In this document: piece by piece, positions 13,831-61,265 of the stretch
Layout: each line of letters opens with the position of its first letter
How positions within the stretch are numbered: the first letter of the stretch is position 1
Assembly (NCBI GenBank): GCA_010405405.1
Contig: MU004237.1
Span: forward strand, 472,191 to 536,190
Direction of reading: 5' to 3'
Source: Microthyrium microscopicum
Taxonomy: Eukaryota
DNA length: 64,000 nt
The notes under the pieces: generated by a model
What the model was told of the DNA's origin: nothing
What the model saw: the letters and a program-made list of their open reading frames with translations, nothing else
Database searches by the model: none
Made by a program: the position numbers and the translations under genes

Positions 13831-14366
13831 TTCAAAGGCAAATATGGAAAACAAGTCTGGTCGTCCATTCTCAAGTTTTCGGACATGGGTGGTAGCTTTT
13901 TCTAGTCTGATGGATGACCTAGAAAGTTAAGCGTATATACCACCATCATAATGAATGAATATAAATAGATGATATCAAAACGAAATGCAATGGAACATGA
14001 AGCATATCCGACCGTACATGAGCGAGTAATCGCAAAGCGGTCTTGAGCTTCGGCAAGATTACATTATGATAGTCAATATGTCCAGACTTTTATATCGGAT
14101 TGTGAGCGCGGAGCGAACCTGAGCGATATCTATATTTAACCCGAGTGTTAGATAGATTAGATAAGCTACTGCCAACTTCCAAGAGACCTAATGAAGAATG
14201 GGTTATTAGAGGATGTTCCAATCTTTCTGGATGGGAATTAACAAACAGTGACCATTGGACAGCTCCCCTTGATATCGGCAGAGGGTGCCACAAAAGAATT
14301 TGGCAGTGATGACTGGACATGTAGAGTGCTTCCTCCTCCTCGTTGCTATCTCAACCAGCACTCGCA

Positions 14367-15374: not shown

Positions 15375-15750
15375 CCAGGCAGATATGAGAAAAAGGATTT
15401 AGAGGGATGACATTGAAGGATTGCATCCTTCTCGGATCTCTGTAATTTTAGCAGCACGTGGAACGGCTATGCCTTGAAGCGAGGCAACAGTTGGCTGGCG
15501 TCCGACATAGATGCACTTTTTGCTCGAACTTGCCCTAGTTTAGAGTAGTTTATTTTGGTGTGAAAAAATGTGTTTTCAACTCTTTCTTATTCAACTCCTT
15601 TGAAGCTGATGTACAGTCGCGCTAAGCCATATCGGTACTAGTGCGCCAGCCTTGTCTTCAATTTCATCTTTTCTTACACTCATCGCACCAACGACATCTC
15701 ACCACGAAATTTATACATCCACCATTTCGCACTATAACAACAAACTTGAA

Positions 15751-17098
15751 ATGGCAGACGCTTCCGAAGACTCCGTCTTCTCATCCTCTCGCCACCCATC
15801 AACACCAACAATCCCAGAAGCCGCTGATCCGTCCGCCCTTCAAGATGCATCAGACGACGAAGAAGAGGAGCTCGCAGCCGATTTCCGCTTCCTAAGTCCA
15901 TCCAACGACACCAAAAAGATTCCCAAACGAGGCATGAAAGACAGCGATCTGCACGGCACAAAACTGCAAGTCTCAGCACTAGACACCAGCCGAGACGCCA
16001 TGCACGAAGTCATCAAGCAAGAGCGCACGCACAATCCAGACATTGCGCACGGCGTCTGGGATCCGGAAACGAATGGCGCCTGGATTATCAAAGCGAATGG
16101 GAAATGGTCATCGTCTGTTGGTAAGACTGTGCGCGTGCCGAATAGGTGGGAGGATGAGGGGAAGATGAGGCCGTTGATGCGGTTGTTGTTGTTGCCTGAG
16201 GAGGCGCTGTGGTTGGTTGAACGAGGGAGTGTTTTTATGCGCTGGCCGGCGGAGGATGGGGTGGCGGAGGATGGTGGGTTGACTATGTCGTTGCAGGCTG
16301 CGTATGCGACGTTTATTGGCATGGAGAGGGGAGGGGGGTTGACGCTGGAGGAGTATTCGGTCTATCAGTATCTTCGGCGGGCGGGATATGCGGTTTTTAG
16401 AGCAAAGGATAATTGGCACAATGTTCCGGCTGCGGAAACGCTTGATGATACAAAGCCTGAAGCGGATGCACATCCCTATCATCCGTTGTGGAGATTCTTC
16501 ACAAAAGCAAGCAGTGAAAGCGTAGAAGATATCAACAAGAGAAAAGCTCATGGCCCCATAGTTCGTCCAGGCTTATACCGAGACTACAGTAAGTCGACTC
16601 AACCATCTCAGTCACGCAAGTTACTAACGGCACATAGAATCAATATATCAACAACTGTCATTAGTACCACATCACAACCCGCAACTAACGCCAGACCTCC
16701 GACAACCCACAGAAGACAGTCTCTCTGTCACATATCACGTTTACAGGCAAGAAACACATTTTCGAAAAACCAATCCAGGCCCTCCCAACTTTTACGTCAG
16801 CGTCATTGACGCCACAGACGCACTCATACCAACAGTGGATCAGCTCGAAGGCTTACTGCGCCAGACGCCTTTCCACCCTCCTCAGGGAACCAAGGACCTG
16901 TACGGTGGACCATTTGCTCAGAAATTGCGAAACGGATATCGACATGTCATTCTTGCAATCGCGGACAAGGGTCTCACAAGTTTTGTCAGTCTGGCCGATG
17001 CAGGCTTTGGAAATAGTCCGTTATGGGAACGAAAACCGCGGGCCGGCAGGGGAGGAAAGGGTGGTGGGAGAGGTCGTGGCAGAGGTCGTGGACGATAA
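15751..17098 (+). CDS. SEN54: tRNA-splicing endonuclease subunit Sen54
   Basis: IPKRGMKD, LLPEEALWLVERG, MSLQAAYA, YSVYQYLRRAGY, GYRHVILAIADKG; intron about 16589-16638. Confidence 0.92.
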
Positions 17099-34788: not shown

Positions 34789-35656
34789 TCAAAAGAATTT
34801 GACTCCCAACGAGTCCTCCTGCCCGAATATTTGTGCTTTTCCGCGCTTGACCAAAACTTGCAGCGATTTCTGCAACAAGTCCATATCCATCCCATGAAAC
34901 TCTACACGTCGTTAGCGCCCATCAGATCTCATATATCCCACGCGCTTCGATGGAATCGACATCGTCAAAAGGATTTGACATACCTTGACTCGCCGTTGCC
35001 TCCCCCTCCACCAATTCCCACAGTGTCAACTGGAAATGATTAGTAGATAATCACAAAAGAATATTACTATAACGCGCTGGGACAAAACCACACTGTGAAA
35101 GAGACAAAAAGGGTCCCCAGGCGCGATAACCAATCGGACTTGATAGTAGACAGCGAATCTCTGGGCCCCATGACACGCGATGCGATCGAAGAACATTTGC
35201 GAAGAAACTCACCACACTGCCCTTCTGCCCCGTGCCATCTACCCATCCCTCCAAAACACTTGCCCACTCCTCCGGCCGTCTCCAGTAAACCCACACCTTC
35301 TCCGCGCCAGTCTTGGCTTTGCCAGTTCCCCCGATCCATTCTGCTCTGTTTCCACCTGGCTCACTTGCCATCCAGTTCAACACCTCTCTTGCGTCATTTA
35401 GAGAGAGTCGCCGATTTAGGGCAGCGTTGTGGAAGAGTGGTGAGTTTAGAGCATCTATTAGGGAAAGCACGAAGATCCGGTTATGCCGACAGTAGGCCTG
35501 GATTAGGAGAGACCATTTTTGGTGTTGAGCGGCGCGAGTTACTAGATTGGGTTGGGCAGTGAAGAAGGGCGGGAAGGAGTAGTAGCCTGGGAACTGGAAT
35601 GGTGTTGCTGTAGACGGTGGTTCTAGTGCGCCTGTCTGTGGGGCTGCTTGGGCCAT
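34789..35656 (-). CDS. VPS25: ESCRT-II subunit Vps25
   Basis: YSFPPFFTAQPN, YWRRPEEWA, GSV|LTLWELVEGE, EFHGMD, C-terminal GVKFF*; introns 35030-35212 and about 34902-34983. Confidence 0.95.
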
Positions 35657-36128
35657 TGGGAAGGCTTGATATTGAAATTTGGCGCCGTCGATCCTTGAAT
35701 ATATAGTGATTGTGGTAATGCCCGTGGAGTTGTGGTGGTTGATGCCTGGATCTTGGATCGAACCCTGGAATTGCGCCGGAGGTGATATGCTTCCTCGCTC
35801 TTTTTTATTTTTCCCAGATGTCTTGATGGGAATTACAGACGACGATGGGAATGTTTGTATAATTTATCGCAAGTTGGTTGAAGGATCGGATGTACCTTTG
35901 TGATGGAGATGGTTGGACGGTTGGAGTTTAATATGCAAGGAGACGGCAAGATCCGTAAGTGGCGCTTGTCGCGTGTATATCCCTGCTTCCTCTAACTTCA
36001 CTCCAACCTTTTGGTCGTGTTTCTGATGATCAAGTCCTAAATCAGGAGTATTCATCTATAGACAGTACCGTAACCACTCTGCGGGATCGAAATTTGCTTC
36101 AGAAAGTCTCATTCGAGCCTATCCCGCC

Positions 36129-37161: not shown

Positions 37162-37776
37162 ATCTGAAGCATCATGGTGCATGGAGGGGACCAAGTCAAA
37201 AGTTACACGCAAATTTGGGTTCGCTCAAAAGCGTAGGTTCCTCAAAACATACACTATGTGTCGTTGATTAACACCATTTTAGCTCAAGACAGTATCATGA
37301 GGTATTACAGCATAATAAATGCCACGAAACCATAATCTTTCAATCATAACCAGGTCAAGAAGAAACGTCGTCTGGTTGAATGCAATAGGTGATTTGGCTT
37401 ACCTAATATTTGGGCTGAATCATAGTGGGAAAGTGTCATAAAACTACGTTGATGCTAATTACAATAATATGTTACACACAGCAGTATACATACATACATA
37501 CAAATTCGACGCCCCTGCCAAATAATACCTCTATTTCTCTCGGGATAGTTCTCCAATCATCAACTCGTTGAAGACTCAAAAAAACCACGCTCAAAGCAAG
37601 CAAAACAAAACCTCCAGAGCGCTAGAAAGGTTGTAAGAGAAGAAAAAACGATACAAGCATTGCAGACACAGTAGCAAAAGAGAAAAGAAAGCAAAAGCAA
37701 TCCATCAATGGGCCAAAATTGAATAGGGTGGTGCTGGTCAAAGTCGAAGTTTTAATCACGAGCAGCAGATGGTGAG

Positions 37777-37783
37777 TATATTT
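37777..37783 (+). promoter_or_regulatory. TATA-like element about 30 nt upstream of the 5S gene
   Basis: TATATTT at about -31; matches the upstream TATA known for dispersed Neurospora 5S genes. Confidence 0.5.
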
Positions 37784-37807
37784 ACTACTCAGTTGCGATT
37801 GCCCTTC

Positions 37808-37926
37808 ACGTACGGCCATAGGTCGAAGAATACAAGGCGTCCCGTCCGCTCCGCCCTATTTAAGCTTCGAACCGGTTGATTAGTAGTACCGTGGGTGACC
37901 AGGCGCGAATCCCAACTGCTGTACGT
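37808..37926 (+). rRNA. 5S rRNA gene (dispersed copy)
   Basis: 119 nt; ACGTACGGC/GCTGTACGT terminal helix, CCCGTCCGCTC, TTAAGC, TTAGTAGTA, GGGTGACC..GCGAATCC; followed by an oligo-T Pol III terminator. Confidence 0.95.
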
Positions 37927-38397
37927 TTTTTTTTGCCCTCCTGGACTACTGGCAAAGATAAAAATATTTTTCTGGACGTTTTCAAGGTTCTGCCTCGCGC
38001 CCCAAAAGTGTTTGGAATTAATTGAAGTGTACGTTGTGGAGTTGTGGCTGGATATATGTCGACTTCTTGGTATAATCCCTGTCGACGTGAAGTCGCTGGC
38101 CGCAACACACTTTTAGCGTGGTAATTTTGGAAAGTCAATCATGAGTAATAAGGACATCCCTGTATCCATTTTGGTCAGTTATGCTCGATAGTTATCAAAA
38201 TCTATGATGGGTAGCGATAACTTACGAAATGCTGAGAAGTATGTTTCCGGTATGGGTTGTGATATCGGGCGCTGTTTGCGGCGGTTCACTGTACGGGGAG
38301 AAAGGCAATCTGTCTACGACAACCGAATGCAGATTCTCTACGGGACGAACTAAATCTATGTTAGGTACGGAATACTTTGAGATTGGACTCTTGGTTA

Positions 38398-38547
38398 CTA
38401 TGGCGTACCTTGTTGATTCAAACTTTGTTCTTTCGCATAATCCAGGCTCTGGTTTTCCTTGCGTATCATTTTATATCTCAAAATAGCAACGATGACTGTG
38501 ACAACAGCCAATGCAGCTCCTAGTATTTCCGAAAAAGTACCTGCCAT
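38398..38547 (-). CDS. Putative single-TM microprotein
   Basis: MAGTFSEILGAALAVVTVIVAILRYKMIRK: hydrophobic helix followed by basic residues. Confidence 0.35.
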   Translation of the reverse strand: MAGTFSEILGAALAVVTVIVAILRYKMIRKENQSLDYAKEQSLNQQGTP

Positions 38548-40337
38548 ATCAAAGTATGATTTATGATTGGTCACTGGTGCTGGAAAGCTTGTGATATAGG
38601 TGGCTGAATGTGGAACGTATGACAGATTCATGATTTCTTGAAAACTAACTCAACGCCTAGTTTGGTCGTTTAGGAATTCGTGAAGTATATCGCGTTATTG
38701 AAAAGAGTGGGTCAAAGTTCTTGAGCTTGAATAACGAGTAGCAGCATTCAACGAGCCACTTTATACTACCTTAGCCCAGGAGCGACCGCAATGGTGGGCA
38801 AGACAAGGCCACGTCTAAGCCACATACCTCACCCTCTACCTACCTAGGTACCCATGAAGCCATTTCAATAAAAGGCAAGCCCCACTACGGCGGGAAGTGA
38901 AATGAGGTGGCAACTGGTACTTCCAGGAAGCGTACTTGGGCAGTGGTACAAATCATCAGTAAGCCAACACAAGTTGCCTTTCAGAACATCAAGAGTATCT
39001 TTTCATGCCGATTATCGTCTTCAAGATCTGAGAGATCACATCAGATTTAGTTGAGCTTCTACAGATTATGTCGTGTCGGTCCATCATAAATTGGCGACAT
39101 ACGATCTACATTTTTCGACCCTCGAAACGGTATTCCTCGATAAATAATTTACAGGGCGTTATCATCATCAGAATCATGTGATCAACTATTCGTGAGGACT
39201 TAAGAGACAAGATGCCGGCCTGAATTAGGAAGTAGTAAACCGCTAGAAGCTGTCTGTGAAAGTGGAAATTGGAGGTGACTACCCATCTTGTCAGATGATC
39301 CTACCTGAGGTTACCACTAGGCGTAAAGATCCAATCGTTAGTCACTGGAAGCAGCCGAGCGGCCGTTGAAATCTCCTGGTGTCACTTGGATCTCCTAGAT
39401 TAGTGATTGGTTTCTCAGCATGGCATACTAGCCCATCTGAGGGTAGAAGATGTCGTGATACTGCTTAAATGGGTCTCTTTCGGCGATTTACAGGGCTGTC
39501 GAATAGTTGTATCACAGATGATAGGTTGTTGGCATCTGACAAGAAGCACAAGTACGACTTGTCAAGGGATATTGGACGGGTGATTGACTCCGCCTTACGA
39601 AGAACTCTCAGTGAAAGCCAGCACTACCAGCGATATTTCATATACTTAAAGAAACGTTCTGAGCCTATAGAAACTCCGACTGCCCTCACGCTACTTTACA
39701 AATATTCCCGGTAGCTACCGATTTAGGTAGTAGGTATGATGTCCGGATAAATTAACTCAGGCAATGATCAAGAACAACGTAATTGATCATGTCAGCAAAC
39801 ATGTAGCGATGGAAAGTTTCAACATTGTTACAACGCTGGGAGGTGAAGCTTATATAGACTTTTTGATAATGTAATGCATCTAAATCTGGCTCAAATCTAG
39901 GTCCATGTGCGGCTCCGATGTTTAACGGCTCCCGTATCTTGAACAGTAAAAACGTATCACCATTGGAGCTCTTGTGCCCTTAATTTGTGCTTGCCATGAC
40001 TTATATCGCAATTGCAGTGGTAAGATTTTATGATTCCGCTACAAAATGTTGTCGTGGCACTTGTTGCCTCACTTTGTCGAGCTTCTTGACTGGGGTTCGA
40101 TGAGCGTCCTGTCTTCCAGTATGTCTGCTAGTGGGATTCCGAGCCATCGGACAGATGGCTTCTTTCCAGTAAGTGGCTAAGCGCGATGTCCATACCAGTC
40201 GAACCATGACGATGGTGTTTGCTTGTGTTGGTGATCTTTCACATTTGTTGCCGTCCAGTGTTCTCGATGGAGATGTTTTGCAGGGCGACGATGGTATGAT
40301 CTACGGGTGGAGAGCCTGATATTTCTTCCAGTCAGCT

Positions 40338-40553
40338 TTATGCATGGATTGATCTGGGTAAAGTCAACAACTCGCCTAACTCAGGATCTGTGTCTCCCAG
40401 AGATTCACGAGTCCTGTGCTGTCTAATTCGAAAGCAACGAATAACTGTCCCCAATAGTACAGTACTAACTAGTGTGCTAGCTACTGCAACTACTGCCCCT
40501 ACTATCTGCGAGGTATACTCGACCGAGGAGCGTGTTGATAGGATAGGTGACAT
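40338..40553 (-). CDS. Putative single-TM microprotein
   Basis: SQIVGAVVAVASTLVSTVLLGTVIRCFRIR..DPELGE: TM helix, basic stop-transfer, DxE-type tail. Confidence 0.4.
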   Translation of the reverse strand: MSPILSTRSSVEYTSQIVGAVVAVASTLVSTVLLGTVIRCFRIRQHRTRESLGDTDPELGELLTLPRSIHA

Positions 40554-43500
40554 CTCTTCGATCTTCAGGTTGGGTTACTTGACTCTGTGGCACTGTGCAA
40601 ACCGAAAATCAGTTCGGTTTGTGCAAACACAGTTGGCTTGATCGAGGGTAGGTGGATCATTATATCTTGTTTTGATAAAAAATCCTTGATATCTGCAGGG
40701 CGAAGAGTACAAATCGCCCACGATAGGCAAGTTCTTTCCACGATTGTACTTGAGAGAGAACCATGGGAGCTATGATCGCTCCATGTTCATCCTTTTAGGT
40801 CCTTAACGCTTCAAGGAATGGCTCTCGCCCCGGTCCGCAGGGACCACGGGTGGAAAGCGGGAAACTATCCGGTAGGCTGCTGGATTGCAATGGGATTGAG
40901 CCTATTCGCTCATCCCTACAATTCTGTATTTACTAAACAAATCAGAATTCATGAGACCTTCGACTCAATTCTGTCCACGCGGACAACACCCCTGGTCTGG
41001 GATGCATCCATGGGGTCGTGAGTTGCTTTCGCTCTGCATACCAATTTTCTGCGACGTCATGACCCGACTGCGATCACTGCTCTCAAGAGAATCCAATGTA
41101 TTGCAGGGCGGACGTAAACGCATTGACGAATGTCAGATAACAGAAAGACGTCTTTAAAGCGCTCGAACTCTTTGATTGTGCATAAACGGTACATTCATAC
41201 TGCATGAAGACCGCACGCATCAGGCTGAGATTAGAGAATGAAGAATCGGTGAGCAATACCAGATGTGGGTGGTATTAGTGACCGATCACAATAGCATAGA
41301 ACGTGGTTTGTGAACGACGCCTTGCTGCATGAGGTGCATGTCCACCTGCGATTGACTTCAATGGCGAGGCGGCTGATGTTCATGATGCAGTAGGCCTCAA
41401 CCCAACCTCCAAGGTGCCACGCCGCCACTTAATAGTAGGTAGGTTCGCGAGTGATTGGTGCGGGACACTGATCTGAAGCAGGCACGACATATTCTTTGAA
41501 GGGCATCGACTCATAACTGCATCAAGGAGCTTTTGGAAGGCCGAAAGCTACCTAGTGTAATGATGCACTGTATAAGTAACCAAAACATGTTAAGAGTTTG
41601 AAGATCGACTCTAGTCTAGGTAGGTACACATCTTCTGCCGCTCTCTACCCCTCTAAGAACTTTTATTCACTTTGTGGATTGCGGCATTTTAGACTTGCCG
41701 CGCTCCGGCACTGATTGTTGCTGGTTGATACTACTGCATAACACATGTGTGGTCATGTAGCCCAAAAGGCAAGCACACTATCATTTTTGTTCTTAATTAG
41801 CGACCGCTATGAGAGCAAGAGTTTTGCTTCTCTTTCCATGCCACAAAATACTCTAAAAGCTAAATTAGTATCAAATTGGCAGGCTGATATCCCGAGTCTA
41901 GCCCAATAGGTAGAAACTGAAGGCTGCGTGATCTTACAGGCCTACATCCTGTCTTGTAAAACACATATTGCTTTTGCTTGAACACAATTGACAATACCTT
42001 GAAGCAAACGGCATGCATAGCAGGCCGTTGTGTTCTTCTTGTTGGCCAGATCAGGCCTCAGCTTAGGCCTCATAGTACGCATGAGGTTTCTCTTTTGGGA
42101 GTAAAGCGCTAGCCATGCAGCTATCTGATATGATAGGCAGTGGAAAGGCAACTTGCTGCCTGGTTTTTGCAAACCTCTGTCACCCACACTTCTGAAATTC
42201 GTCAGGGCAATAATTTTCTCATGGTCGAACAAAGCACTTGGTCAGCCAAAATTTGATGAGCAATTGATCATAGCATAATAAATTTTGGAAAACTTGATTT
42301 ATGGAATAGAGTCAATAGACAGCTACGACCATGAAAGTATTCGCTTGAAGACACTAGGGGTGGTCGGCGGAGTAGTTTGCCTTACATGGTTGGTCCCCTG
42401 GGAGACATCACATTTGGTGCAGCAGTATTCTTGAGACGGCGTCCAGACACTCTCGAAAAAGCCTGGTGTAGTTCTTCGCTGGCTACGTTCTTTCATTGGA
42501 ACCAAGCAATGAAAGAAGCTAATCGTTAAGTCGGGGATCCAACTAGATTCTCCGCTGCAACTTGTCACCCAATGGATCACCAGTTCAAACAGAATTTGAA
42601 ACATGGAAGAGCAGGATTGTTGAAAAGTGCATGCACAGTAAAATGGCTACAAGGCGTGAAGGCAGGTCAACAGGCTTTGAGCGCTAGCTGCGATAAATAA
42701 ATTCATGGCGAGGCGATGCGCTGGCATGTAAAAAACCCTAGTTCAAATTGAATGTAAATACCATCAAGTTATGGTGATAGTATGAAGATGTCCGCTAATC
42801 CTGCCGGGTTGGTTCCAGGTGGCTGGATGACCATGTTTGTCTAGCTTGACTTGTCGATTTTCGACATTAGACCTTCCATGCTCCAGGAAAGCCACAGTCT
42901 TCTCTCATGCAAAGAGTGATTATGGGGCGATTTTATACTGGCTGATTAGTCGAGCTCATGGTGGGTGGGCGCAAACAGCAGACGGCATATATTAGGTCAA
43001 CTAAGTCTATCTGCAGACCGCTCACTTCCTTGTCCTGAGTCCACCTCACCGACGAAAGTCCCCGTATGAAGATGGACTGCTTTGCCATGTATTTCTATCT
43101 TCTAAACTTCACGCTAATGACTTTCAGGCCGGGAATATTGACGCTGCTGGGGAAAGTCTACCTAAAAGAATGGAAATTGTGGAAAGCAAAGTACGTTTAC
43201 AATGATTTGGGCACGCAAACCCCAAACGTCATACTGCTCAGGAGCTCAAGGACTGGTATGTACGAGCGAGTTACGCCTCCTGAGCGCCGATCGCATTGCG
43301 AGTCGTCTTGTTATCCGGCTGAGCAAATAGCTTTAGCAGACAAGCAAAACGAATGTGCCAATTCCCAAACATGTCCTGTTGATTGGTAAGGATGCATGAC
43401 GTTTTGGAGCCTATATTGCAACGAAAGCAACTAGAGATGAATGGATCTTTCTGTGCGCCATCGCATCCATCAACATCCAAATTTCACGCTGCTTCAGTTA

Positions 43501-45058
43501 TGACTTAATAGGACCAGACGCCTTTCAGGGTCACTTGACTTCTGAAGGTCATCAATCTATTATCGAGCTTGGCTACATGGTTTAGCTAAAAAGAAATAGC
43601 CGCATTATGTGCAAGTCATGTCCAAAATGACAAAATTCTATCTCCTAGTATACACAAATGTGATGGCACTTGGGGCCGCTGTAGTACAAACTCTACCTCC
43701 TCCAATCACAGATGTCATATCTTTGAGATCAACTTGCCGGGAAAATGAGAGTAAGCCTCTTCGCTCAATCTGTACATTGGCAATGACCGGTCACTGCGGG
43801 CATGCGCAATGCAAGGACAACTGTAGAATACCTAACTTCGAAGCAGAGTGAAGTTTCTCGAATTATGGCTTGCGCTTCAACAAATCTAGATTAATAGACA
43901 CACTCAATGGTTGCATATACGAGCATCTAATAGGCTCCCCTCAGAGATTTGAAATATAAATCACAGAAATGGGTGAAAAATATATGGCTGTTTGATATTT
44001 GTAGCGAATAGGGGCAATAAACAACGGCTGAGTAAGCAGCAGACGCGTCTCAGTTTGAGCCTCAAAATCACAACAACAAACACATCGCGACTCACCTAAC
44101 TCCAACCTCAATGCACTCTCTTTACTTCCCCTATCTCTCAAATAAATCTTTGGCTTCTTCGAAATACAGTCAGTCCAAGTTTACCCTATGGAATCATGCA
44201 AGACCAGCAGAAAGACTCGGTAATTCCCTCATGAAGCTCGCCCAGCAGTCTCCTTCCTTTTTCACGTCCCGAGTATGGGCTCTTAGCGTGCCGAGCTTCA
44301 GTCCTGGCCTCAACCTCTCTAAACAAGTGATGGACGTCTGCGCAAGTCCTCCAGTTCTCTCTCGATGGACATATGGGTCTTTGGTTCCTGGACAGCAGCG
44401 TCGTAGCCGCTCCCGCTGGGCCAAATCATAGCACTATGTAGCGTCAGCGAGAGAAGCTTCCTGTCCACGAGCAGAGTTTCATTGGCTGGTTATCGGGGAG
44501 TTCGTGTCACGGCCTGGAGATTATTCCATCGCGTCTGGTTCGGACCTACAAAAGGTCGTTGCACCCCTCTGAGAAAAACCTAACAGAATGAAACCGAGAA
44601 CATGAGTGAGGACAATCGTAAGTAACTCATGTGTGCTTGGTTTTGGCGCTGATAGGTTTCTAGGCCAATCTGGATGCCCTGACCCACACTGCAAATTCGC
44701 ATTGGCAGCCTTCCTCAACACTACTGGATGAATTTATCATCCCGTCATACCTATCCATGGACCTGCTACATTGCATGTAAGCCGGATTCTTTAGCTTCCG
44801 GGACCGTACGCAAGCTAAGTGGTTTATTTGCACAAAAGGCAAAGCCTCTAGCGACGGACGCCTGAGTAGTGCAAGTGGTAAAGGAGGGCAGGTACGCATT
44901 CATGTGCTCGCACAGAAGAAAGTTTCATTCGTCACTACATAAAACTAGTAATAGAGAGAGGAATATTGTTTATGCCGTACAAACAAGAGTTACGCGAGTA
45001 TAGAACGAGTGGTGCTGGCAAACACAAACCATGCCTCAGAAAGAAGGGTGATCAGGAG

Positions 45059-46998
45059 CTAAGGTGCTCCTAGGAACCTCGCATTGTTGATCAAAATCGG
45101 GCGGACGGGCACGACCGTGGCCACTGAGATGTGTGGCCAGGAGAGAGTGTTGAAGTTGAGCAGAACTGTTTGAGAATATTGAATCTGCGTGGCCTCAACT
45201 GCATATCTACCCGCTGGTACATCTTTATTCACTGGAAAGACGAAGCTGGGAACAGTACCTGGTACAAGGCCTTTGTCTATAGGCTGAAGCTCAGTGGGAG
45301 GCGCAAGAAGTTTGCCCTCCGCTCCGGTCTTAGGTTTCCCTTCTGAAGTTACCTGAGCTACATATTTTGTTGGTAGCAGTATCGTGTAGACGACTGTGGA
45401 AATCCAGAAAGTAGACTCAACTTTCCCGACGCTCGCATTAGGTTTACCATTCAAAGCTCCATCCAGGAAAGCAATATTGGCAGTGCCAATGGCCGGCATA
45501 GGGGATGGCGCAACTGGAGCCGGTGCTTTCCCTTTAGCAGCCGTGGCTGGTAGAAGATTCGTTGATCGCTCAACGAAGGTCTGTTGTGCGACTTTGAGTG
45601 CCTGCAAACTTTTGTTGACTTCCTCTTTTTCTTTTGAAGTCGTCACGCTAGTCAGTTTGAGGTCAATGTCTTTAAGCGCCTTGTCTATCGCGGCTTTTGC
45701 ATCGTCGATTGCCGCTTTTGCGGCTAGATGTGGGCATGCTTGTCTCGCGAGAGAGTCGACAGGTAGAGTTGGTAGAGTTGATACAGTGAATTGAATGACT
45801 TGGCTGAAAGCTTTCCCAGCATTGTGGCTCTTTAGGAGGGTGTTTGGATTGTTAACGAGCTCTTGTGTAATTTCCGATGTTGTTGCAATTTTCTGCGGCA
45901 ATCTCGTCGCAGCTCCGTTGGTAAGCGAGAAATGAGGCAGTGTAATCTCACCACCTCCGGCCAGAGGGAAGGGCTTCGAGGAAGCAAGCGGAAAATCAGG
46001 TTGAAATCCATCGTTTGGCGTGGCAGGAGACTTTGGATTGTTCATGATTGGTGCTACTTCTCCTTGGGCGTTGATAGTTGTACCATGAGGAATGGATGCC
46101 ATGCGGCATATTGTAGCGTTGTTTTGAGGTACCTCAGTTGGCGGAACATGCATAAAAAGTCCGGGTTCGAAATGGATATCTTCGACGTCGTCTTGTTGAG
46201 TTGAAACCTTTGCTGCACCCAGATTATCAACCGGGATGCGGGAACCCCCTGAGCTTTTGGCGGTGACGTCCCTCACAAGTTGCGTATATGGAATGCCTTT
46301 CATGAAAAGGTCATGGCGTTTGCTGGGCAAAGCCTCGTCGCCTTGCCCAGCCACACGATTGGGAACATCCCCCAGGTTGCCTTTCTTGCTGGGAAATGTC
46401 CAAATTTCATGGGTGAGATTGAGCTCTAAAAGGTCATCATCTGGTAAGGAAATCCCTGGGTTCGCCTTTTGCAATTTTTCCAAATCCGGTGGTTGTTTAT
46501 CTCCATGAGGTCGGAAGATAAGATTGAATCCAGCTAAACCCGTTAGCGTGTTATTCATGTTGAAGTAGTAAAATGCCAGTAGTATTGAAAGCAAGACGTG
46601 TGGTCCTCGACTCATAAATGCAGTTGAAGCACAAGTACCAAAGGTAGCTTCGATTCTAGCCATCGCCGAGCTTGAAAGAATTTGAAGAGCTACCATTAGA
46701 GAAAAAGAGAATCGCACTTACGCCCAGAAAAAGGTCCTATAAGTCGAGCAATGGCGTCTCCATAGTTTTCCTTTCCTACATTGCGACTCGGGAACCGGAT
46801 AGGATCTGTTTTCGCTGCTACCACTGGTGTTGGGGCTGGCGTAGGGGTGGGTACAGCTGCTGGAGAAGTTGCCGTCCCACCAACTAGACTCTTGTCGGCT
46901 GATTGAATTTTGAATTCCGCAGGCAACGAGATGCCAGGAACGGGCTTGCTAAGGAGCTCTGGGGGATAGAAGTCATTGGCGTTGATGTAGTCAGTCAT
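45059..46998 (-). CDS. Bacterial-type heme-binding protein / putative FMP-type peroxidase
   Basis: LIGPFSG|GFNLIFRP, LLELNLTHE, IHFEPGLF, RMASIPHG, STFWI, QIQYSQTVLLNF, WPHISVAT resemble (from memory) the family of Flavobacterium meningosepticum peroxidase. Intron about 46534-46721 (may hide a micro-exon); no signal peptide. Confidence 0.7.
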
Positions 46999-48330
46999 AA
47001 TTGATGTTGTCGCCAAGATGCTTTGACTAGGGCTGGAATTGAATAGACAAAGAAGTTTTGAAGAGAGCAAAATGGAAAGACGAAGAATACCAGATATAAG
47101 AAAGCTTAGCAGAGAGAAGATCGTGGCCTTGAAATATCTCTCAAGTGCATATACAAGCTTTAGTCTAATGTCACTAAATAGAGCTTGGTAGCAGACTCTG
47201 GATCTGCGTCTTCAGAGTCAATGAAGCATGACTAAATACAGTTCATTGGGCCGATGTGGTCTAGATGCTCTATCGACTGTGTATGGTAGCATGAGGGGAA
47301 GCTGAATGTGTCTACATATCAGCCCTTGGTTTGTGTCTATCCAATTGTAATGTCTCTAGCACTAATGTATCGTATGATGAGCTTCGATTGCGAGCACGAT
47401 ATCCAGCCACTGCTTGAAATATATGCTGCAGGAGCACATTTACATATCTCATCAATGTAATAGAGATACATAATTCGTTCTAGACACAAGGATTTGAGAC
47501 CTCAGCTTTTCGAGACCCTGGGAATGAGCACCCATTAAGATCAGGTAAATGTCGTATACCTGCATAAAGGCTGCAGCTGGGTGGACAAACACCTCAGCCT
47601 TATCTGAAGGAGTGTTATTTCCCGTTTGTTGCGCTATCTCGTTTATGCAGTTGATTGACTTTTCGATAAGTGCCGCGAGGCCGTGAGTCTCGAGCAGTCT
47701 GAAGCGCAATTCATATCTTGGCAGATAATAATGTGCATCTCAGCTATCGGGAAGGTGGTGATCATACTCTATTTCACGACTTTTTGAGACTGGGCATGTT
47801 ATCGACGTGCAGTTCAGCTCCTGTGAATCAGCCTTATGTGCTCATTGTTGCAGAATGCCAAGACCCGGTAAGGCTGTCTCGGCATGCAACTTGGGAATCC
47901 TTCGCCCGTTGCAGTAAATCTAAACGAGTCTGGCGATACGTCTAGACAATCCGGCAGGGGATCCAGAATCTATCCTCAAGTCTAGATTCTCAGCCCTATT
48001 CAAACGAGCGGAGTAATTGAGCTACTCGGCGTTCACCATTGGTCAAGCACGGTGAAGAGACAGGCAATTGGGCACGGGGTTGGACGTCCTGCAGGACGGC
48101 ACGGCACGGCACACTCTACTGCAGGGTAGAAGATGAGTGAGGGATTAAGCCATGGCTCAGGCCCAGGTTGGGTAGGTTGAGCGGTTAGCACTATACTGCG
48201 AGCTAGAACCGAACAAGTATCATTGTATTCGTAGTCAGATAGTCAAATGTAAGAATCTCAAGTAATAGAAGTCGTCACTCAGATGGGATACACATCATGT
48301 GCCAACCAGAGAAACTGAATGGCAAGGCAC

Positions 48331-51230
48331 CTAAATAAGCAGCCGCACTTGGAGTCTGTATCCATCGTCCGTTTGGCTTACTGGGCCAGTAACAGCGTAA
48401 GTTTGGACATCGTCAATTGCTTGCGACTGTACAAGTTTGTCGTAAGCATCAGCTTCTTCGGGAGTAACGGCCTGAGGACTTTGGGAAACCCTGTCCCATT
48501 GAATTTTGGTTTGAGGCTCTAGACGAGTCAATTCAACGTCAGGTCTCGAGCCTTCACCGATCAAGAAGAGTCTGTTATCCTTGAGCTCGACAAAGCCTTT
48601 GAGGGTGGCTTCAAAGCCACGAATCCCGTATGTTGCGCGTATGATGTCGTAAAACTGTCTTCTCCAGTTTTCGAAGACAGGTAGCCCATTATCTTGCATA
48701 TAGACGGAGGCACTCGAGCTATTCGAGTGAGGCATTGGATCGACATGTTCAACGCCATCCAGTTTCCCAAGTGCATCATGTGCAGCACCCCAGCAGGCCG
48801 ATAGACCATATGGGCAGATCGATTCAATCCCGATTTCGATACGTGTTCCCGTGGCCGCTGCGCGCACCGCGGCACGCATTTTGATGGTGTTGGGAGGATT
48901 ATGTTTCGCGAGCTTGAGATCGGCTGCGAACTTCTTGCGTTCGGCTTCCAACTTAGCAGATGGCAAGATTTGCATGATCTTGCCTATTGATGGCTTGCCT
49001 ATCTCATTGAGAGCGAACAGCATGTAATATCCGGGTGGGCATGTGTTGGGATTAGATGGCGCCGTCACAGCAAGGGCCCCAGCTTCTCCTGGTACTGGCT
49101 TGAAGTCTAGCCAGTTGAGCCGTTGACCAGTGTTGATAGAATGTGTGACAGATGAGAGGCCGATCAGGCTTATTTTTTTGATCTGATCTGACGAGGTGGT
49201 GGTAATTTCGAAATTTGCTCCGTGAGTGGCCGAATCTGCCCCAGATATAATGCTCGGCCGCGTTCCAGGTTTGCACAAATATGGAGGCGAAAAGAACTGA
49301 GCATTTCTGTAAGATTCTTTTGGGAGATTGGCCGTATCCTTGTCTTTGATCTGGAACTCGCCGCCTCCAGCACTGAGTATCCTGCCATCTGGCACCAGCA
49401 CCGCAGTTGCATGGTAACAGCGGTCGAATTGTTCAGAAGCCATCAGTTTCCAGCTCCCATTGTCTCCAATGCGTGGATCCCACAGTTCCGCGTCGTGCAC
49501 AGTTCTGCCATCACTGAGATCATTGAAAGGATCTTGGCCAGTGTCACCATTGCCCCGAGTACCACCTGTTACAAGCACCGTCCCATCGGGGAGTATAGTG
49601 GCGTTGTGCTGCCGGCGGGGAAAGTTCATGGGATTGCTCGGTATCCAGCCGATTTCAGCTTGAGCCAAATCAATAGTGTTGGCAGTTGAATCTGGAGGCC
49701 TGCTACCTCCAACAAAAAGTACCTTGCCTGTGTCATACATAACGGAGCATCCGTAGTCGGTCGACACCGGCCTGCTGACCACCGCGGGCTGAGTGGTCTT
49801 AGTAGCGGTAAGCAGTTCAATCGTGTTCCAAGTTCCTGAGCCCGGGGGAGTTGGCGGCATAGTTTTATCGGAGCCATTGATATTTAGGGACAATGTGTTC
49901 TGTAGCGACACTGCAAAAACGAGTCCGTTTGGAGCCACGTGCATGCGTGGATAAAGGTCTTTAATCTCGGACTGTGCACTGCGTACGAACTCTGTACCAG
50001 TCCAGATCTCAGGGATGTTAGCATTGGTATTTGCCTTGGGGTTCTTAGGATCTGTCCCGTAGCTGCCAGATGTCACGAGAACAGCCCCTGTTCCCAAAGA
50101 AGTGACTGTTGGGTACCACCGGCCTTTCAACATTTTAGGACCTGGTTTCCATTTCCCCAGCCCCTTTGCTTCCGGGATGTAGACAGATGACTGGTTGGCA
50201 CCAGAGCCATCATACTCATGGCCCCCGACTACCAATAGGCTTCCATCAGGCAAAAAGGTATGGCCAGAGCAGAAGAGATTTGCATTTGTATCTGGGCCAT
50301 CTCTTTGGTAAGTTGGCTGCGGAGTAAAGTCATATTCCGGAGTGTTCTTGGAAGGATCAAACTCTCGGGGATTGACGGGATCAAACAGAAAAGGGGTGCA
50401 AGTTGCTGCAGGAGAAGGTAGACCTCCAGGACCGTCAATAGGGGTCGGTGGAAACGTGTTCATGGATTGCTTGGGATTGTCTCGTCTGCCCCACATAAGT
50501 ATCTTGCCAGTCCACAAGAGATGAGCATGGGCAGCAACATTTGGTAATTGAATGACCTTGCCCCATTGGCCTCGTTGACTTGGGTCGGGGATAGTACTTC
50601 CGATGGTAAAGTTGAATGGGCTTTTTCGAGCATCTTCGTCTTTACCGGATGTGGCAGAAAATAGACCAGTAGCGTCGCTGCTTCGAAGATACGTGATCTC
50701 TTTATCGGCTTGGGCTTATGAAGGACATATTAGCATATGTCTTTCATGGGTAACAATACATTCTGCGAAGTGACAAGTAAGTCTCCCGAAGATCCCTTTT
50801 CTCCTCTTATATATCTTGTGCGAATGGCTTCATAAGGATTACAATGAAGAATTTGAGCTGTGCAGACCGAGCAGATTATTGTCAGGAAGAGCTTACCATA
50901 CGCAGCGACTATATAGTATTGCACTTGAGTGCCCGCAGGGAGTCCATCGACTGGAATGGCTGCAGAAAAGAATTTGTCATTTCCGACAGTATCGACAAAC
51001 TCCATTTGCTGTGTCTGCCAGGCCGTCCAGTTACTCTTGAGCAATTGCCTAAACCACAACGCACTGCCATCTCGAAGTTGATTGCCAGCAGCTGAGCCAC
51101 CCTGAAATTGATTGCCGCTGAATATTGTGACCTGCTTGGTGGAATCATTGGGGAATGCAGGACTTCGCATACCATTCGTCGCAGGCCTTTTGGCTTCCGT
51201 AGGCGTATGCCAGGCATTACCGAACACCAT
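48331..51230 (-). CDS. Copper radical oxidase (galactose oxidase-like, AA5 fold) with N-terminal beta domain and C-terminal HMA-like domain
   Basis: LFCSGH (Cys), RWYPT (Tyr), RCYHA (Tyr-His), SSVTHS (His), Kelch repeats, CPPGYYMLF; intron about 50716-50896 joins QYYIVAAY to AQADKEITYL in frame. Confidence 0.9.
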
Positions 51231-52384
51231 TTCGATCTGATGTGGTGTAAGAGATGCAGTTCAACAAAGGCAAACGGATAGTGAGAAGAGCTGGAGAAGG
51301 AGTGAATCATGTGCCGATTGCATATACCTTGAGTCTTATAGAATTCTGCAGATAAATACCCCAGCCATCAGATGGGCTGCATGGCACCGCTGAAGGATCA
51401 AAGGAACGATCACTACAACGTACGAACTGCATTGAATCCTTTGAGAGTCGTTCGCGTCGCCAGATGTGATTCTGGACCACGCCAAGGCATGCAAGACAAC
51501 CAAAAGCTGACAACAACCATGATCGGCTGCATAAGCATCGCATGAGTTTGAGAAAACCCCACTTCAGCCTTATCAAGCTGAAGAACGCATATGCATGCAC
51601 AGTGTAGTATGAAAGACCTTAGACGGAGCTCATCTGAGATCAATTCCTCTGCAAGACCTTTCTGGGCCAGAAGCGCTTGTCGATGAATCTTGATTTGCTT
51701 GGCATTGCTGTTCGCCGTGATTGACCGCTCAAAAGCTGAATAGTGATGGGAATCAAGGCGCGGAACATGCCACCCTGGAAATCATGGTCTATTCCATGAG
51801 ATGACACTGGAAGTCTTGCTCCATTTGAGAAAAGGAATAGGGGTCACCGCTTGCCATTTGGTGCATAGACCCATGCGTCAACATGGGCAAGCGATACAAT
51901 ATCTGATCAACTCTCCAGGCGTCTGTAATGGTGGTACAGTGTAGTGAGCAGTGGATAGAAACGCGTCTGAAAGGGAGGATTAAAATGATGAACAACCTTG
52001 GACAGGGACTGAACAGTGAATGGGGGGAAAGAAAACAGATCGCTGACTAAGCTTTGCCAGGAGTACCGTGCGTTCAGGGGTCAAGTCAATAAGCCTCAAC
52101 ATTGTCAACAACAACTCCTTTTCCTTCATCCTTTGACTCTACTTTCACCATCCATTTCATTAAGGACCTGCATGATTCAGATCCGGCTATCTATCAGCGC
52201 CTTGAAAATGACATTTTGACTGGTTTGCACTTCGTCTTAAACTCGGAGTGTAATCAGTGAATCTAACAACTATCAAGAGTTTATTGATCAAGAAATGAGC
52301 AACAAATCAGACCCCATTGGGAGAGTCGTGATTTGACGAAACCCAATTTTCGATCCAGTTGGTGGCTTAGAACTCAGACATCGG

Positions 52385-53864
52385 TCAACTTTGGCTTTGG
52401 GCAATGATTTCGTCTCTCTCTACGGCACTGATCCGGACACCATAGCCTTCAAGCAAGTTGACGACTCCATCGTGTTCTCGGTCAATGGCGGTTTTCAGTG
52501 CAGCGCGAATGCTGACTTCTTGTACCTTGCTATGTTCGAAAAGTAGACGAGTGGTGTTCACAGATCCACCCTTTGCTGCGTGCTCGATTGCAGAGCCAAC
52601 AATAGCACCCTCCTCGAGCAGCAGTTGGACAATCTCGGTGTGACCACTTTTCGCCGCAGCATGAAGGGCCCAACTGCCATCATAATTTTTGGGCATGGTA
52701 GCGCCGAGCAAGAATTCCAGCGGTGCTTCCACTTCTCGAAGTAAATAGCGGACCATGTCTTGTAGTCCATGTTCCGACGCCTTTACCAGCCGGAGCGGCA
52801 CAAATCTCTTGCGAAACTCGGCCCGCTTTTTGGCCTGTATATCGGGGCACGGTGCAAGCGGCCTCTTCACTGGGTCTTCAGTCCATAATTTGAGTTCCCA
52901 GATAAACCTGCGCAGTGTACTGAGAGAACTTGTTTGCGACAAGATCTCACGGAGCGGACGGAGCGCATCGTTAGAGCCCGAGAGGTGGTCCCAACTGGAA
53001 CTGAGGGCCATATCAACCAGGTCGTCATGTCCCCCTCGTCCTGCCCAGCGAATTACGGTGGGCCTATGGCCAGGGAAATCGGCTCTGTCGGTCTTGGGGG
53101 GTTTTGGATACTGGTGGACCAGCAGGTTCACAATATCTCGGTGGCCGCCATACGCAGCGCATGCTTCAGGAAATGGAAATATGCTCTCCGCACTGTACAA
53201 GTTAGTTTTAACGGATAACTAAAAGCCCAGTGCACTCCTACTTAGCACAGTAATAGTTGAAATCTTGATCGCACAAAGCTTGCACCAAAGGCATCATTCC
53301 AAGAAAAGCTGCCGCACTCAAAAGTTGCTGGGTGAAGTACTTACTCAACAGAATACCATTCGGATTGTCTACAGGATGACGTTGCATGTATTTGTTGACA
53401 TTGAGATGAAAGTGAAGATTAGCGAACGACAAGTTGCAAAGCTTTCTGACACATGCTCTGAATTGCTCGTCAGTATAGCGGCTAGAGTACAGCTCGTCTT
53501 GGTGTTCAAGAATGCCGCGAGCAACATTATGTATTATGAAGATCTCAGGTGAAGCAGATCTGGCCCCGAGGACACAGCGCACCAGATATTGCTGCCAAAA
53601 CCATGCCGCTTCATTTCTCAAGGCGAGCTTGGGTATGTTTTGGTCACTCTCAATAATGCCAGATTGGAATATGGCGTCGACTGTATACTGTGCGAAAGTT
53701 TCTGTAGAGAGTCAGCTCAATCGATGACCACAAAGAATCTGGCCGGCCTCACTGTTGACGAGTCTTAGTCTTAGAGCCCGCTTGAAGCTTCTAGCGCGGA
53801 CACAGTGCTCGAGAATTAATATAAGTAGTTCCGGAGAAAGAACAGAGAGCGGCATGACTGCCAT
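52385..53864 (-). CDS. Ankyrin-repeat protein with N-terminal F-box-like motif
   Basis: LSPELLILILEH..RALRLRLVN; AAYGGHRDIVNLL, ALHAAAKSGHTEIVQLLLEEGA; two introns. Confidence 0.8.
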
Positions 53865-59831: not shown

Positions 59832-61265
59832 CTAGCTAATGTCCATGCCAAGTTCGTCCTCTTCTTTGATGCTCAAAGACCCGCGGCCACTGTCACCACC
59901 GTTCTGGAACCACATGTCGGTTGACTCAGCGCTACCAGGGTCGGCCTTGATTTGGATGTCGACCTTGGAGCCGTCAAGTGGTTCACCAGCCCAGTTGGTA
60001 AAGTCAGGGACCCGGAGTCCAGAGTTGAGATGCCGCGAGTAGTGGAAATTCTCAAAGCCGTTTCGTTGTATAGCCTGACGCATTTCTGACAACATTCGGC
60101 TTTCATCGTCAGACTCTTGATAAGGCCAAGTGCCACCCATTGCCTCGAACTGTTGTCGCAACTCTGCATGTTGTCGATCCCGTAGATCAATAATCCACAT
60201 AAGATCTCGCATCCATGCTACAGCTCCGTTGAGAATGTCACCCTTGTTGGGGCCTTTTTCTTTCTCCTCTTGGGGCAGACCTTGCGTAATTGTGCCTGCG
60301 GTCGCCCGACGACCAGTTCCACCAGCCAGAAGCGAAGTGGCATGTGGAGGAGATATGCCATGTGGAGAAAGTGGGCCGTTGGCGTTGATATGCTTCCGCA
60401 CCTTTTCATCCTCAAGACGATGGCCAGGTACCAGTTTGGAAAGATCCTGGATACGCTCATTGATATTGTCACGTCGTCTCCGCTCAACTAGGTTGTGCGA
60501 CTCTCTGCGGCGCTTCTTCTTGGCTTCTTGTGATTGGAATGAAGGCAAGCTTGCACTATGTGCGCCTTCTAGCTTGGCTGGAACGGATGCATGTTTTCCA
60601 GCGATGATTTCGGAAATTTGAGGATGGTGCATTTGATGACCATGTGGAGATGCGAGAGGAGAATCGAGCCATGAGTGGCCACTGCCAGGTGTACCGTCCC
60701 AATTATTTGATGCGAGTTTGGCTTGGTGGTTCAACATGGCTTGTTGTTGTAATGAGTCTGGAGTTCCGATCTGAAGGCCTTGGATACGAGGAGTCATTGG
60801 GCTACGGGAGTCGGAAGGTTGGCGTTCCATCATCTTACGTTGCATGCCATTCGGTACGCTCATGTTGCCACCATATTGGACTTGTCCGTATTGTTGGTAG
60901 TTGAAGTTCTCATTTGCAAAAGGGCTGCGAATGGGAGGCTCATTTGGTGTGTTCGAGAATAGCTGTGGAGCAGCTATGTTCTGTTGATGGCCCATGGAGG
61001 AATTACCCTGGAAGAAGCCTTGGTCTGTAGCCATGTTTGGGCTAAAGCCATTGGTACTGTAGTTTGGGTTGAAGTCATTGTCGAGGTCAAGTAGCTCGTC
61101 ATCAGCAATGCCAGCATTCCCCATGCCATACGAATGGCCCATTTGGCCAAATCCGTTGTTGTTGTTCATCATGCCGTTACTTCCGTTCATGGTACTGTTG
61201 CTTGGATCGACACCGTTGGCGTCGGGACTGGATGATGCAAAATTGTTGGAGTGTTGATATGACAT
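59832..61265 (-). CDS. bHLH transcription factor, Rtg3/GlcD-gamma-like
   Basis: KKRRRESHNLVERRRRDNINERIQDL, long loop, NKGDILNGAVAWMRDL. Confidence 0.9.
   Translation of the reverse strand: MSYQHSNNFASSSPDANGVDPSNSTMNGSNGMMNNNNGFGQMGHSYGMGNAGIADDELLDLDNDFNPNYSTNGFSPNMATDQGFFQGNSSMGHQQNIAAPQLFSNTPNEPPIRSPFANENFNYQQYGQVQYGGNMSVPNGMQRKMMERQPSDSRSPMTPRIQGLQIGTPDSLQQQAMLNHQAKLASNNWDGTPGSGHSWLDSPLASPHGHQMHHPQISEIIAGKHASVPAKLEGAHSASLPSFQSQEAKKKRRRESHNLVERRRRDNINERIQDLSKLVPGHRLEDEKVRKHINANGPLSPHGISPPHATSLLAGGTGRRATAGTITQGLPQEEKEKGPNKGDILNGAVAWMRDLMWIIDLRDRQHAELRQQFEAMGGTWPYQESDDESRMLSEMRQAIQRNGFENFHYSRHLNSGLRVPDFTNWAGEPLDGSKVDIQIKADPGSAESTDMWFQNGGDSGRGSLSIKEEDELGMDIS

Follow-up and report, generated by a model that had tools for sequence, protein, structure and literature searches.

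To our knowledge, natural heme partners of copper radical oxidases (CROs) are known from only two systems. In Colletotrichum and Magnaporthe a neighbouring AA2 peroxidase is the natural activator of the AA5_2 alcohol oxidase (PMC9770985; also PMC11611005), and in Streptomyces the CRO GlxA needs the DyP peroxidase DtpA (PMC4736821). Here we describe two neighbouring minus-strand genes in a 64,000-nucleotide stretch (the window) of the genome of the Dothideomycete fungus Microthyrium microscopicum (assembly GCA_010405405.1, contig MU004237.1, positions 472,191 to 536,190), the first of which encodes a CRO and the second, downstream, a protein of the FMP family with a predicted nitrobindin-type barrel. 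We know of no link between a nitrobindin and an oxidase. The oxidase is of actinobacterial and its partner of fungal descent, and homologues of the two are found side by side, or fused, in other genomes in a way that suggests that they probably work as a team.

The pair resembles the AA5_2-AA2 tandem in being fungal and in placing a CRO gene beside the gene of a heme protein thought to activate the oxidase (in the window partner, heme is predicted). The tandem's products are co-secreted and its genes lie head to head, whereas the window genes are co-oriented and their products lack signal peptides; the tandem's partner is an AA2 peroxidase and that of the window a predicted nitrobindin-fold barrel with no Pfam peroxidase match; and the window CRO, of actinobacterial descent, carries extra N- and C-terminal domains. 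The GlxA/DtpA system offers a second parallel, a CRO, in this case bacterial, that requires a heme peroxidase; no structure matches the window CRO better than GlxA. It differs in that GlxA is found outside the cell in association with the membrane (PMC11611005) and DtpA is a substrate of the Tat pathway, which makes both extracellular, whereas the window pair is predicted to be cytosolic; DtpA, a DyP, is moreover unrelated to FMP. The nitrobindins (Rv2717c, the C-terminal domain of human THAP4 and the Arabidopsis protein) share with the partner the barrel fold, aligned along the full nitrobindin chain at Z 13.3-15.5, an N-terminal L-x-P-L-x-G-x-W-x-G-x-G motif and, by eye, a C-terminal P-H-(L/V)-S. 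FMP proteins have large insertions and exceed the nitrobindins two- to three-and-a-half-fold in length.

By its residues and fold, the window oxidase is a complete CRO of bacterial type. Pfam finds GO-like_E_set (7.6e-23), Glyoxal_oxid_N (4.2e-13) and Kelch motifs, and 22 of the 23 Protein Data Bank (PDB) sequences matched at E<=0.001 are galactose oxidases, GlxA or related CROs, the remaining one being a Kelch protein (3.6e-06). The AlphaFold model (predicted local distance difference test, pLDDT, 86.8; predicted template modelling score, pTM, 0.86) aligns best with GlxA (4unm; Z 40.4, root-mean-square deviation (rmsd) 2.1, 450 residues aligned), followed by galactose oxidase (2wq8, Z 39.7), the Colletotrichum alcohol oxidase (5c92, Z 39.6) and glyoxal oxidase (9n3u, Z 34.9). 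Pfam and the model together give the seven-bladed Kelch propeller followed by an E-set that characterizes the CAZy AA5-like CRO superfamily. The active-site residues were assigned at motif level, by HMMER alignment to the ligand motifs of 9g8h and 6ryv. In galactose oxidase the ligands are Tyr272, Tyr495, His496 and His581, and the Cys in thioether linkage with the equatorial Tyr is Cys228 (PMC11611005). The window counterparts Cys260, Tyr312, Tyr545, His546 and His636 (Table 1) are invariant in all 52 aligned relatives. Tyr330 stands at what we take to be the position of galactose oxidase Trp290. The score against the GlxA equivalog NF052501, 147.2 bits with a cut-off of 800, places the protein in another class of CRO.

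Two further domains flank the catalytic part. The N-terminal one is modelled as a beta sandwich; neither it nor exon 1 has a Pfam match, and it is also present in the bacterial orthologues of ~860 aa. The C-terminal domain, again with no Pfam match, follows two linker helices and contains a CPYG(I/L)(A/S)AC motif of which C745, P746, Y747, G748 and C752 are invariant in 52 of 52 relatives. The ferredoxin-like order of its strands and helices and the placement of its cysteines fit HMA, and the spacing is CxxxxxxC, unlike the CxxC that we take to be the rule in HMA (PF00403). Its structural look-alikes in the atlas include HMA-bearing clusters, all below the naming threshold. The HMA likeness of the modelled domain is thus a lead only; such a domain could be a built-in copper-acquisition device for a cytosolic copper enzyme.

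Neither protein begins with a hydrophobic stretch (within the first 60 residues the best 10-residue Kyte-Doolittle mean is 0.19 in the CRO and 0.92 in the partner), and the CRO aligns from its first residue with bacterial orthologues that start MALGNAWH; the absence of signal peptides is judged from this hydropathy and N-terminal alignment. An earlier note on this DNA, made from the letters alone, had described two co-oriented genes about 1.3 kb apart, both lacking signal peptides, the first a bacterial-type CRO with all copper ligands and the Cys-Tyr residues and the second a protein with FMP-type heme motifs that is not an AA2 peroxidase, and in each of these points its description agrees with what we find (for the bacterial type and the partner, see below).

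The partner belongs to the FMP heme-binding family: the full protein scores 151.4 bits against NCBIfam NF040572 (heme_bind_FMP; cut-off 150), in two stretches split by a hairpin insertion, and its exon 2 alone 145.7 bits, while FMPs neighbouring bacterial CROs reach 250-264 bits. No Pfam family matches it at E<=5, the AA2 and DyP peroxidase families included, and it has no PDB sequence relative, either as a single sequence or as a 58-sequence profile at E<=10. A language-model look-alike search returned a cluster named 'peroxidase, FMP-type' at 0.94, which is a lead only. We found no publication on FMP proteins, or behind the names NF040571 and NF040572, and none on a CRO linked to a nitrobindin-like protein.

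The partner model, built with 58 sequences (pLDDT 77.6, pTM 0.79), is a beta-barrel with long insertions, among them a helical hairpin at residues 360-419. Foldseek against the PDB returned only porins, at a TM score of about 0.1. Exhaustive alignment with VIA-align gave Rv2717c as the best match (2fr2; Z 15.5, rmsd 2.3, 161 of 161 residues, 19% identity), then THAP4 (Z 14.2) and Arabidopsis nitrobindin (Z 13.3; entries 3ia8 and 3wjb, respectively, as aligned), and next the fatty-acid-binding-like Rv0813 (Z 13.2) and the spirocyclase OlmO (Z 10.5). By this model the partner has a ten-stranded nitrobindin-fold barrel. The N-terminal L-x-P-L motif mentioned above is common to FMPs and nitrobindins, and the FMP ending WPH(V/I)SVAT resembles, by eye, the PHL(S/A)A ending of nitrobindins of the same bacteria. 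Arg152, His213, Arg236, His242 and His560 are invariant in 58 of 58 FMP relatives and are candidates for the heme ligand and acid-base residues; in nitrobindins heme is held by a proximal His (PMC7915275). Fold, invariant residues and family name together make heme binding by the partner likely. The hairpin is specific to a long form of FMP found in fungi and is absent from bacterial and short fungal FMPs: bacterial matches cover partner residues 82-351 and 442-579 only, and the bacterial 400-aa FMPs lack ~352-441.

The earlier note had suggested a bacterial origin for the pair as a unit, and a survey of bacterial CRO loci shows that the pairing does recur there. The survey took one genome per prokaryote species; 457 pattern matches gave 403 confirmed by tblastn, of which the best 80 were kept, corresponding to 65 distinct loci. 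By tblastn and hidden Markov model, an FMP-family open reading frame (ORF) is present in the examined flanks (<=10 kb) of 15 of the 65, within 3 kb of the CRO in 13 and co-oriented with it in 12; of the 30 CRO loci with at least 7 kb of flank on each side, 9 have one. In L002, L013, L022, L023, L025, L033, L051 and L056 the FMP gene lies directly upstream of the CRO gene, 7-222 nt away; in L056 another copy follows downstream at a distance of 6 nt. When 552 neighbour ORFs were clustered all against all, FMP came out as the commonest CRO neighbour, at 12 loci within 6 kb, with every other cluster at 5 or fewer. Five genomes of 6.2-9.4 Mb contain 1, 3, 3, 0 and 1 NF040572 matches, and in two of them the sole copy is the one at the CRO locus (in G001, 222 nt upstream). 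With so few copies per genome, chance predicts well under one CRO-FMP locus in 65, and the pairing is more than chance. Its carriers are Actinomycetota, Acidobacteriota, Pseudomonadota and Myxococcota, with FMPs in two size classes, ~300 and ~400 aa.

The two proteins also occur as one polypeptide. Among 7997 candidates scored with a bacterial FMP, 15 longer proteins carry an FMP domain at E<=1e-10, and three clusters of these, P0262 (900 aa), P0263 (942 aa) and P0265 (894 aa), with 6, 1 and 6 member sequences, are natural fusions of a CRO (~100-524) with a complete FMP domain (~560-890). Against the GlxA model they reach 262-283 bits and against NF040572 230-242 bits, and the five residues of the copper site and the eight examined in the FMP domain are all conserved; the order, CRO then FMP, is that of the window. 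Their N-termini are, by eye, hydrophobic and signal-peptide-like, and the CRO-FMP partnership therefore reaches beyond the cytosol. The fungal-like clade has three pairs of a long-form FMP and a CRO homologue that are each recorded on one contig (47006, 8595 and 8480 nt), judged by equal record sizes.

CROs lapse into a one-electron-reduced, inactive state, from which peroxidases or mild oxidants bring them back (PMC11611005). We propose, as a reading that we would about as readily accept as doubt, that CRO and FMP form a cytosolic module of oxidase and heme partner in which the FMP uses the H2O2 made by the CRO to activate or protect it. The CRO would use O2 to oxidize a primary alcohol, probably one belonging to a sugar or glucoside, and yield H2O2; in the FMP barrel, the invariant His of the C-terminal WPH motif would hold the heme; this heme would react with the H2O2 to reach a high-valent state and oxidize the resting Cu(II)-Tyr-Cys site by one electron, by which the Cu(II)-radical would be formed or restored; and the same reaction would keep cytosolic peroxide low. 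The fusions and tight operons fit action at the enzyme itself. They fit equally well a role for FMP as a maturation factor that acts once, in copper loading and Cys-Tyr cross-linking, and not in turnover, much as DtpA is required for the maturation of GlxA (PMC4736821), and the HMA-like C-terminal domain of the CRO with its invariant Cys pair hints that metal loading in the cytosol may be a special problem. A covalently attached, full-size barrel would, however, be costly for a one-off step, and the thioether of galactose oxidase forms spontaneously with copper and O2 (PMC11611005), so that we regard a pure maturation role as quite unlikely. A complex prediction for the L013 pair (CRO 160-860 with FMP 12-305), run without controls or supplied alignments, scored 0.00 and bears neither way.

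Several observations weigh against the proposed activation of the CRO by FMP. Against the 'peroxidase, FMP-type' equivalog NF040571 (cut-off 300) the partner reaches no more than 20.8 bits, and no neighbour or fusion examined exceeds the 62.6 bits of P0272. The Pfam nitrobindin model THAP4_heme-bd (PF08768) misses the partner at E<=5 and gives only 12 bits on the FMP of L013, and hhalign of FMP against four actinobacterial nitrobindins aligned 24 columns (E 0.0042, probability 8%), covering the N-terminal motif only. Nitrobindins themselves are described as binding NO and isomerizing peroxynitrite, not as carrying out peroxidase chemistry (PMC6275384). As to linkage, the examined flanks of 50 of the 65 bacterial CRO loci, many of them short, contain no FMP; in genome G003 all three FMP genes lie away from the CRO, and G004 has a CRO and no FMP match. 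A metagenome scan for FMP gave 44 loci, only two of them with a CRO, a distant one fused to a multicopper-oxidase domain; the 47006-, 8595- and 8480-nt contigs of the three environmental pairs, whose same-contig status comes from equal record sizes alone, were not among its returns. Venturia effusa, V. inaequalis, V. nashicola, Tothia and Rhizodiscina have a long-form FMP and no CRO among the 120 best CRO matches, where an orthologue at >=45% identity should have appeared, and Lophiostoma has the CRO and no long-form FMP among the 120 best FMP matches. Given this patchy co-occurrence, the FMP family has jobs beyond CROs, and its link to them is facultative.

That the link is optional, with the Venturia long form lacking a CRO among the top matches, would also suit an FMP that only protects against stress, scavenging peroxide or reactive nitrogen species in the manner of a nitrobindin, and that is retained close to any source of peroxide with no direct contact to the CRO; human nitrobindin is reported to detoxify peroxynitrite (PMC6275384). 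Fusion into a single polypeptide in three separate clusters argues instead for action at the enzyme, and we hold the protector role to be very unlikely.

FMP genes also lie beside other H2O2-forming oxidases. Among 20 loci there are a LodA-type lysine oxidase (L074:2076-5168) and a flavin amine oxidase (L107:11251-12636), and L056 has a GMC oxidoreductase (13693-16610) beside an FMP. These cases are anecdotal, most neighbours in the 20 loci being unrelated, and fit a general peroxide-linked role. In L070 (6474-9500; also L071) a 1009-aa protein joins a Cu-oxidase_2 multicopper domain to a CRO propeller and E-set, with an FMP gene 1.7 kb upstream. A ferritin-like protein (PF12902) accompanies FMP and oxidase in both L074 and L056. 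Such surroundings would suit a general second step that uses peroxide, in which FMP acts on small molecules, as a peroxygenase or dismutase that uses H2O2 on the aldehyde or another substrate, or as a lipocalin-like carrier that brings in a hydrophobic alcohol or takes away the aldehyde, and the structural matches of the barrel to the non-heme binder Rv0813 and enzyme OlmO (Z 13.2 and 10.5) point the same way. On the other side, the fully conserved His and Arg and the heme in the name of the NCBIfam family favour a heme site, and the gene context speaks of sugars, not of a hydrophobic cargo, so we rate this role unlikely. That context consists of GH31 genes in L007 and L003 and of L021 (8204-10150), where the N-terminal part of the CRO matches alpha-amylase catalytic and C-terminal domains; both point to alpha-glucosides as the CRO substrate.

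In the loci just mentioned the GH31 gene stands between FMP and CRO (L007:7516-9954; L003:3961-6414), and in L007 a second CRO paralogue follows directly downstream (12960-15491). The L021 protein, the one member scanned for alpha-amylase domains, belongs to a class of CROs of ~1300 aa found in Acidobacteriota, Verrucomicrobiota, Pseudomonadota and Bacteroidota (L014, L021, L025, L032, L035, L037, L038, L048, L051, L056, L061).

The closest full-length relatives of the window CRO, both extra domains included, are proteins of ~860 aa with 45-51% identity, several of them from metagenome bins of Streptosporangiaceae or Mycobacterium. Two trees were made, one with FastTree from 108 rows (66 locus CRO ORFs of at least 600 aa, P0121, P0155 and 40 of the other 118 listed matches) and one with IQ-TREE from 51 rows, rooted on the distant CRO of L070. 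Both contain a clade of nine with support 100, made up of the Microthyrium and Lophiostoma macrostomum proteins and seven others; a taxon name is known for two of the nine, both Dothideomycetes. In the rooted tree its sister is the 853-aa P0122 (100), followed by a Streptosporangiaceae bin (95), and the nine lie inside a clade of 25 rows (100) whose other members are either Actinomycetota or without a taxon. On these trees we read the CRO as the product of one transfer from an actinobacterium to a Dothideomycete lineage. For GlxA an earlier proposal ran the other way, from fungi to Streptomyces (PMC3543389), whereas the direction here is from bacteria to fungi. Since the clade nests in Actinomycetota, the CRO intron was gained after the transfer, much as the earlier note had supposed.

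The partner has another history. A FastTree of the 120 listed FMP matches and 15 ORFs beside bacterial CROs (ORF fragments below 250 aa dropped) is split, with support 97, into a half with all bacterial rows and a half with every fungus-named row, the long forms being nested deep in the latter; an IQ-TREE analysis of 41 hand-picked rows under a mixture model gave the same split (99) and placed the long forms as sister to two short proteins of the fungal half (97). Forcing the long forms together with six 400-aa FMPs that adjoin bacterial CROs costs 69.0 log-likelihood units (approximately unbiased test, p-AU 0.0008), and forcing the short fungal FMPs alone into a clade costs 26.7 (p-AU 0.033). 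The groups were set after the first tree had been seen, which weakens these p-values somewhat; the co-transfer hypothesis itself predates the tree. Co-transfer of CRO and FMP as one bacterial operon is rejected, and the partner is, on the phylogenetic evidence, of fungal descent beside an acquired CRO. The operon suggested in the earlier note thus stands for the bacterial CRO and for the recurrence of the pairing (15 of 65 loci and three fusion clusters) and falls for the joint import, as the partner groups with fungal FMPs. In the activation model, the fungus would have recruited a resident long-form (hairpin) FMP paralogue to the acquired CRO.

The different origins of the two genes, and the window order of CRO then FMP as against FMP then CRO in most bacterial loci, could be taken to mean that they are neighbours in the fungus by chance or for mere co-regulation, with no shared function. 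The M. microscopicum genome has at least two FMP paralogues, a number at which a neighbour by chance is improbable; three more contigs appear to bear this pairing, the fusions share the window order, and one spliced contig contains both genes. We therefore think functionless adjacency extremely improbable.

Beyond the activation model itself, we suggest, with rather less than even credence, that nitrobindin-fold FMPs are a third independent class of heme partner of CROs, after AA2 and DyP, and form with them self-activating modules that occur as neighbours, as fusions and, unusually, in the cytosol; a Dothideomycete lineage would then have rebuilt such a module from an actinobacterial CRO with an HMA-like copper-loading domain and a resident FMP paralogue that had gained a docking hairpin. 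Horseradish peroxidase is the empirical activator of CRO biocatalysts (PMC12951238). If the suggestion is true, the natural fusions are ready-made self-activating oxidases, a large unstudied family of heme proteins of bacteria and Ascomycota has its first biochemical role, and the window enzyme is, as far as our literature search showed, the first CRO found to make peroxide inside the cell. PMC11267884 contains neither 'intracellular' nor 'cytoplasm', and a search for the phrase 'bacterial copper radical oxidase' found no publication. The locus is also a clear case of a bacterial CRO gene that settled in a fungal genome, gained introns and became tied to a host paralogue from the family that accompanies it in bacteria.

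The gene structures are given in Table 1. The spliced CRO translation is letter-identical to a deposited M. microscopicum DUF1929-domain protein (P0121, 905 aa) and that of the partner to BT63DRAFT_456719 (P0001, 583 aa); both deposited proteins, at 100% identity, lie on one 2.4-Mb M. microscopicum record. A 6709-nt contig of the public run X1 spans 51238 to beyond 44700 and contains both genes; within the coding genes exactly the two coding-region introns are removed from it and nothing else, and as it skips both introns it derives from spliced RNA. The run is RNA by a guess of the run listing, and we rely solely on the joints within its contigs; one contig across both genes is no proof of a single transcript, and contig depth is uninformative on expression level. 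The intron in the CRO 5' untranslated region is also seen unspliced, in a 149-nt X1 contig (51209-51357), and in this run the CRO-gene transcript extends upstream past 51600.

Table 1. Features of the CRO gene and its FMP-family partner in the window (positions count from the first letter of the window)
Feature	Position	Strand	Remarks
CRO gene	48331..51230	(-)	exons 51230-50897 and 50714-48331 including stop; 905 aa; ATG 51230-51228, stop 48333-48331
CRO 5' untranslated-region intron	51237..51327	(-)	91 nt, GT..AG; X1 joint 51236>51328
CRO intron	50715..50896	(-)	182 nt, GT..AG, after codon 111; skipped in X1 contig
CRO N-terminal all-beta domain (sandwich)	50644..51143 including intron	(-)	residues ~30-135; strands 34-134, pLDDT mostly >85
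CRO catalytic Kelch propeller and E-set	48961..50601	(-)	residues ~150-696; Pfam, PDB alignment, model
CRO Cys260 (thioether Cys; LFCSGH)	50269-50271	(-)	aligns with FCPG of 9g8h, 6ryv
CRO Tyr312 (GRWYP)	50113-50115	(-)	copper ligand by motif alignment
CRO Tyr330	50059-50061	(-)	at Trp of GGSWSG in 9g8h alignment
CRO Tyr545-His546 (RCYH)	49411-49416	(-)	copper ligands by motif alignment
CRO His636 (VTHS)	49141-49143	(-)	copper ligand by motif alignment
CRO C-terminal domain	48334..48852	(-)	residues ~733-905, after two linker helices; starts beta-alpha-beta-beta-alpha-beta
CPYGLSAC (Cys745, Cys752)	48793-48816	(-)	between first strand and first helix of CRO C-terminal domain
Intergenic stretch between CRO and FMP coding regions	46999..48330	(-)	1332 nt; covered unbroken by X1 spliced contig
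FMP-family heme-binding (nitrobindin-fold, predicted) partner gene	45059..46998	(-)	exons 46998-46722 and 46533-45059 including stop; 583 aa
Partner start and stop	ATG 46998-46996; stop 45061-45059	(-)	read from sequence
Partner intron	46534..46721	(-)	188 nt, GT..AG, within codon 93; skipped in X1 contig
FMP barrel polar residues, span	45131..46357	(-)	candidate heme ligand and acid-base residues
Arg152	46355-46357	(-)	FMP partner
His213	46172-46174	(-)	FMP partner
Arg236	46103-46105	(-)	FMP partner
His242	46085-46087	(-)	FMP partner
His560	45131-45133	(-)	FMP partner, in WPH(I/V)SVAT
Helical-hairpin insertion	45491..45763	(-)	FMP residues ~350-440; helices 360-388, 392-419; model

Other FMP fusions, taken from precomputed Pfam lists (P0259, P0260, P0264, P0268, P0266, P0269), join FMP to MinD-like ATPases, to PF01582, PF13676 and PF13191 (which we take to be TIR and AAA_16), to HET in Cudoniella and to a short-chain dehydrogenase in Fusarium oxysporum.

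Bacterial contamination of the assembly was considered and is ruled out by the 2.4-Mb record, the spliced introns and the neighbouring ORFs with eukaryotic domains. These ORFs encode ESCRT-II (35051-35863), BRCT (32038-34568), HLH (59832-61346) and ankyrin-repeat domains, the last at 52385-53218 on the minus strand, immediately upstream of the CRO gene. The ~7.8 kb downstream of the partner (37200-45000) contain no open frame of at least 200 aa; the X1 spliced contig continues ~540 nt past 44700, so that the 3' end of the partner transcript or another transcript reaches into this stretch. Elsewhere in the window, the 4 kb at 4001-8000 have a G+C content of 27-30%, against a window mean of 46%, and may be a degraded repeat.

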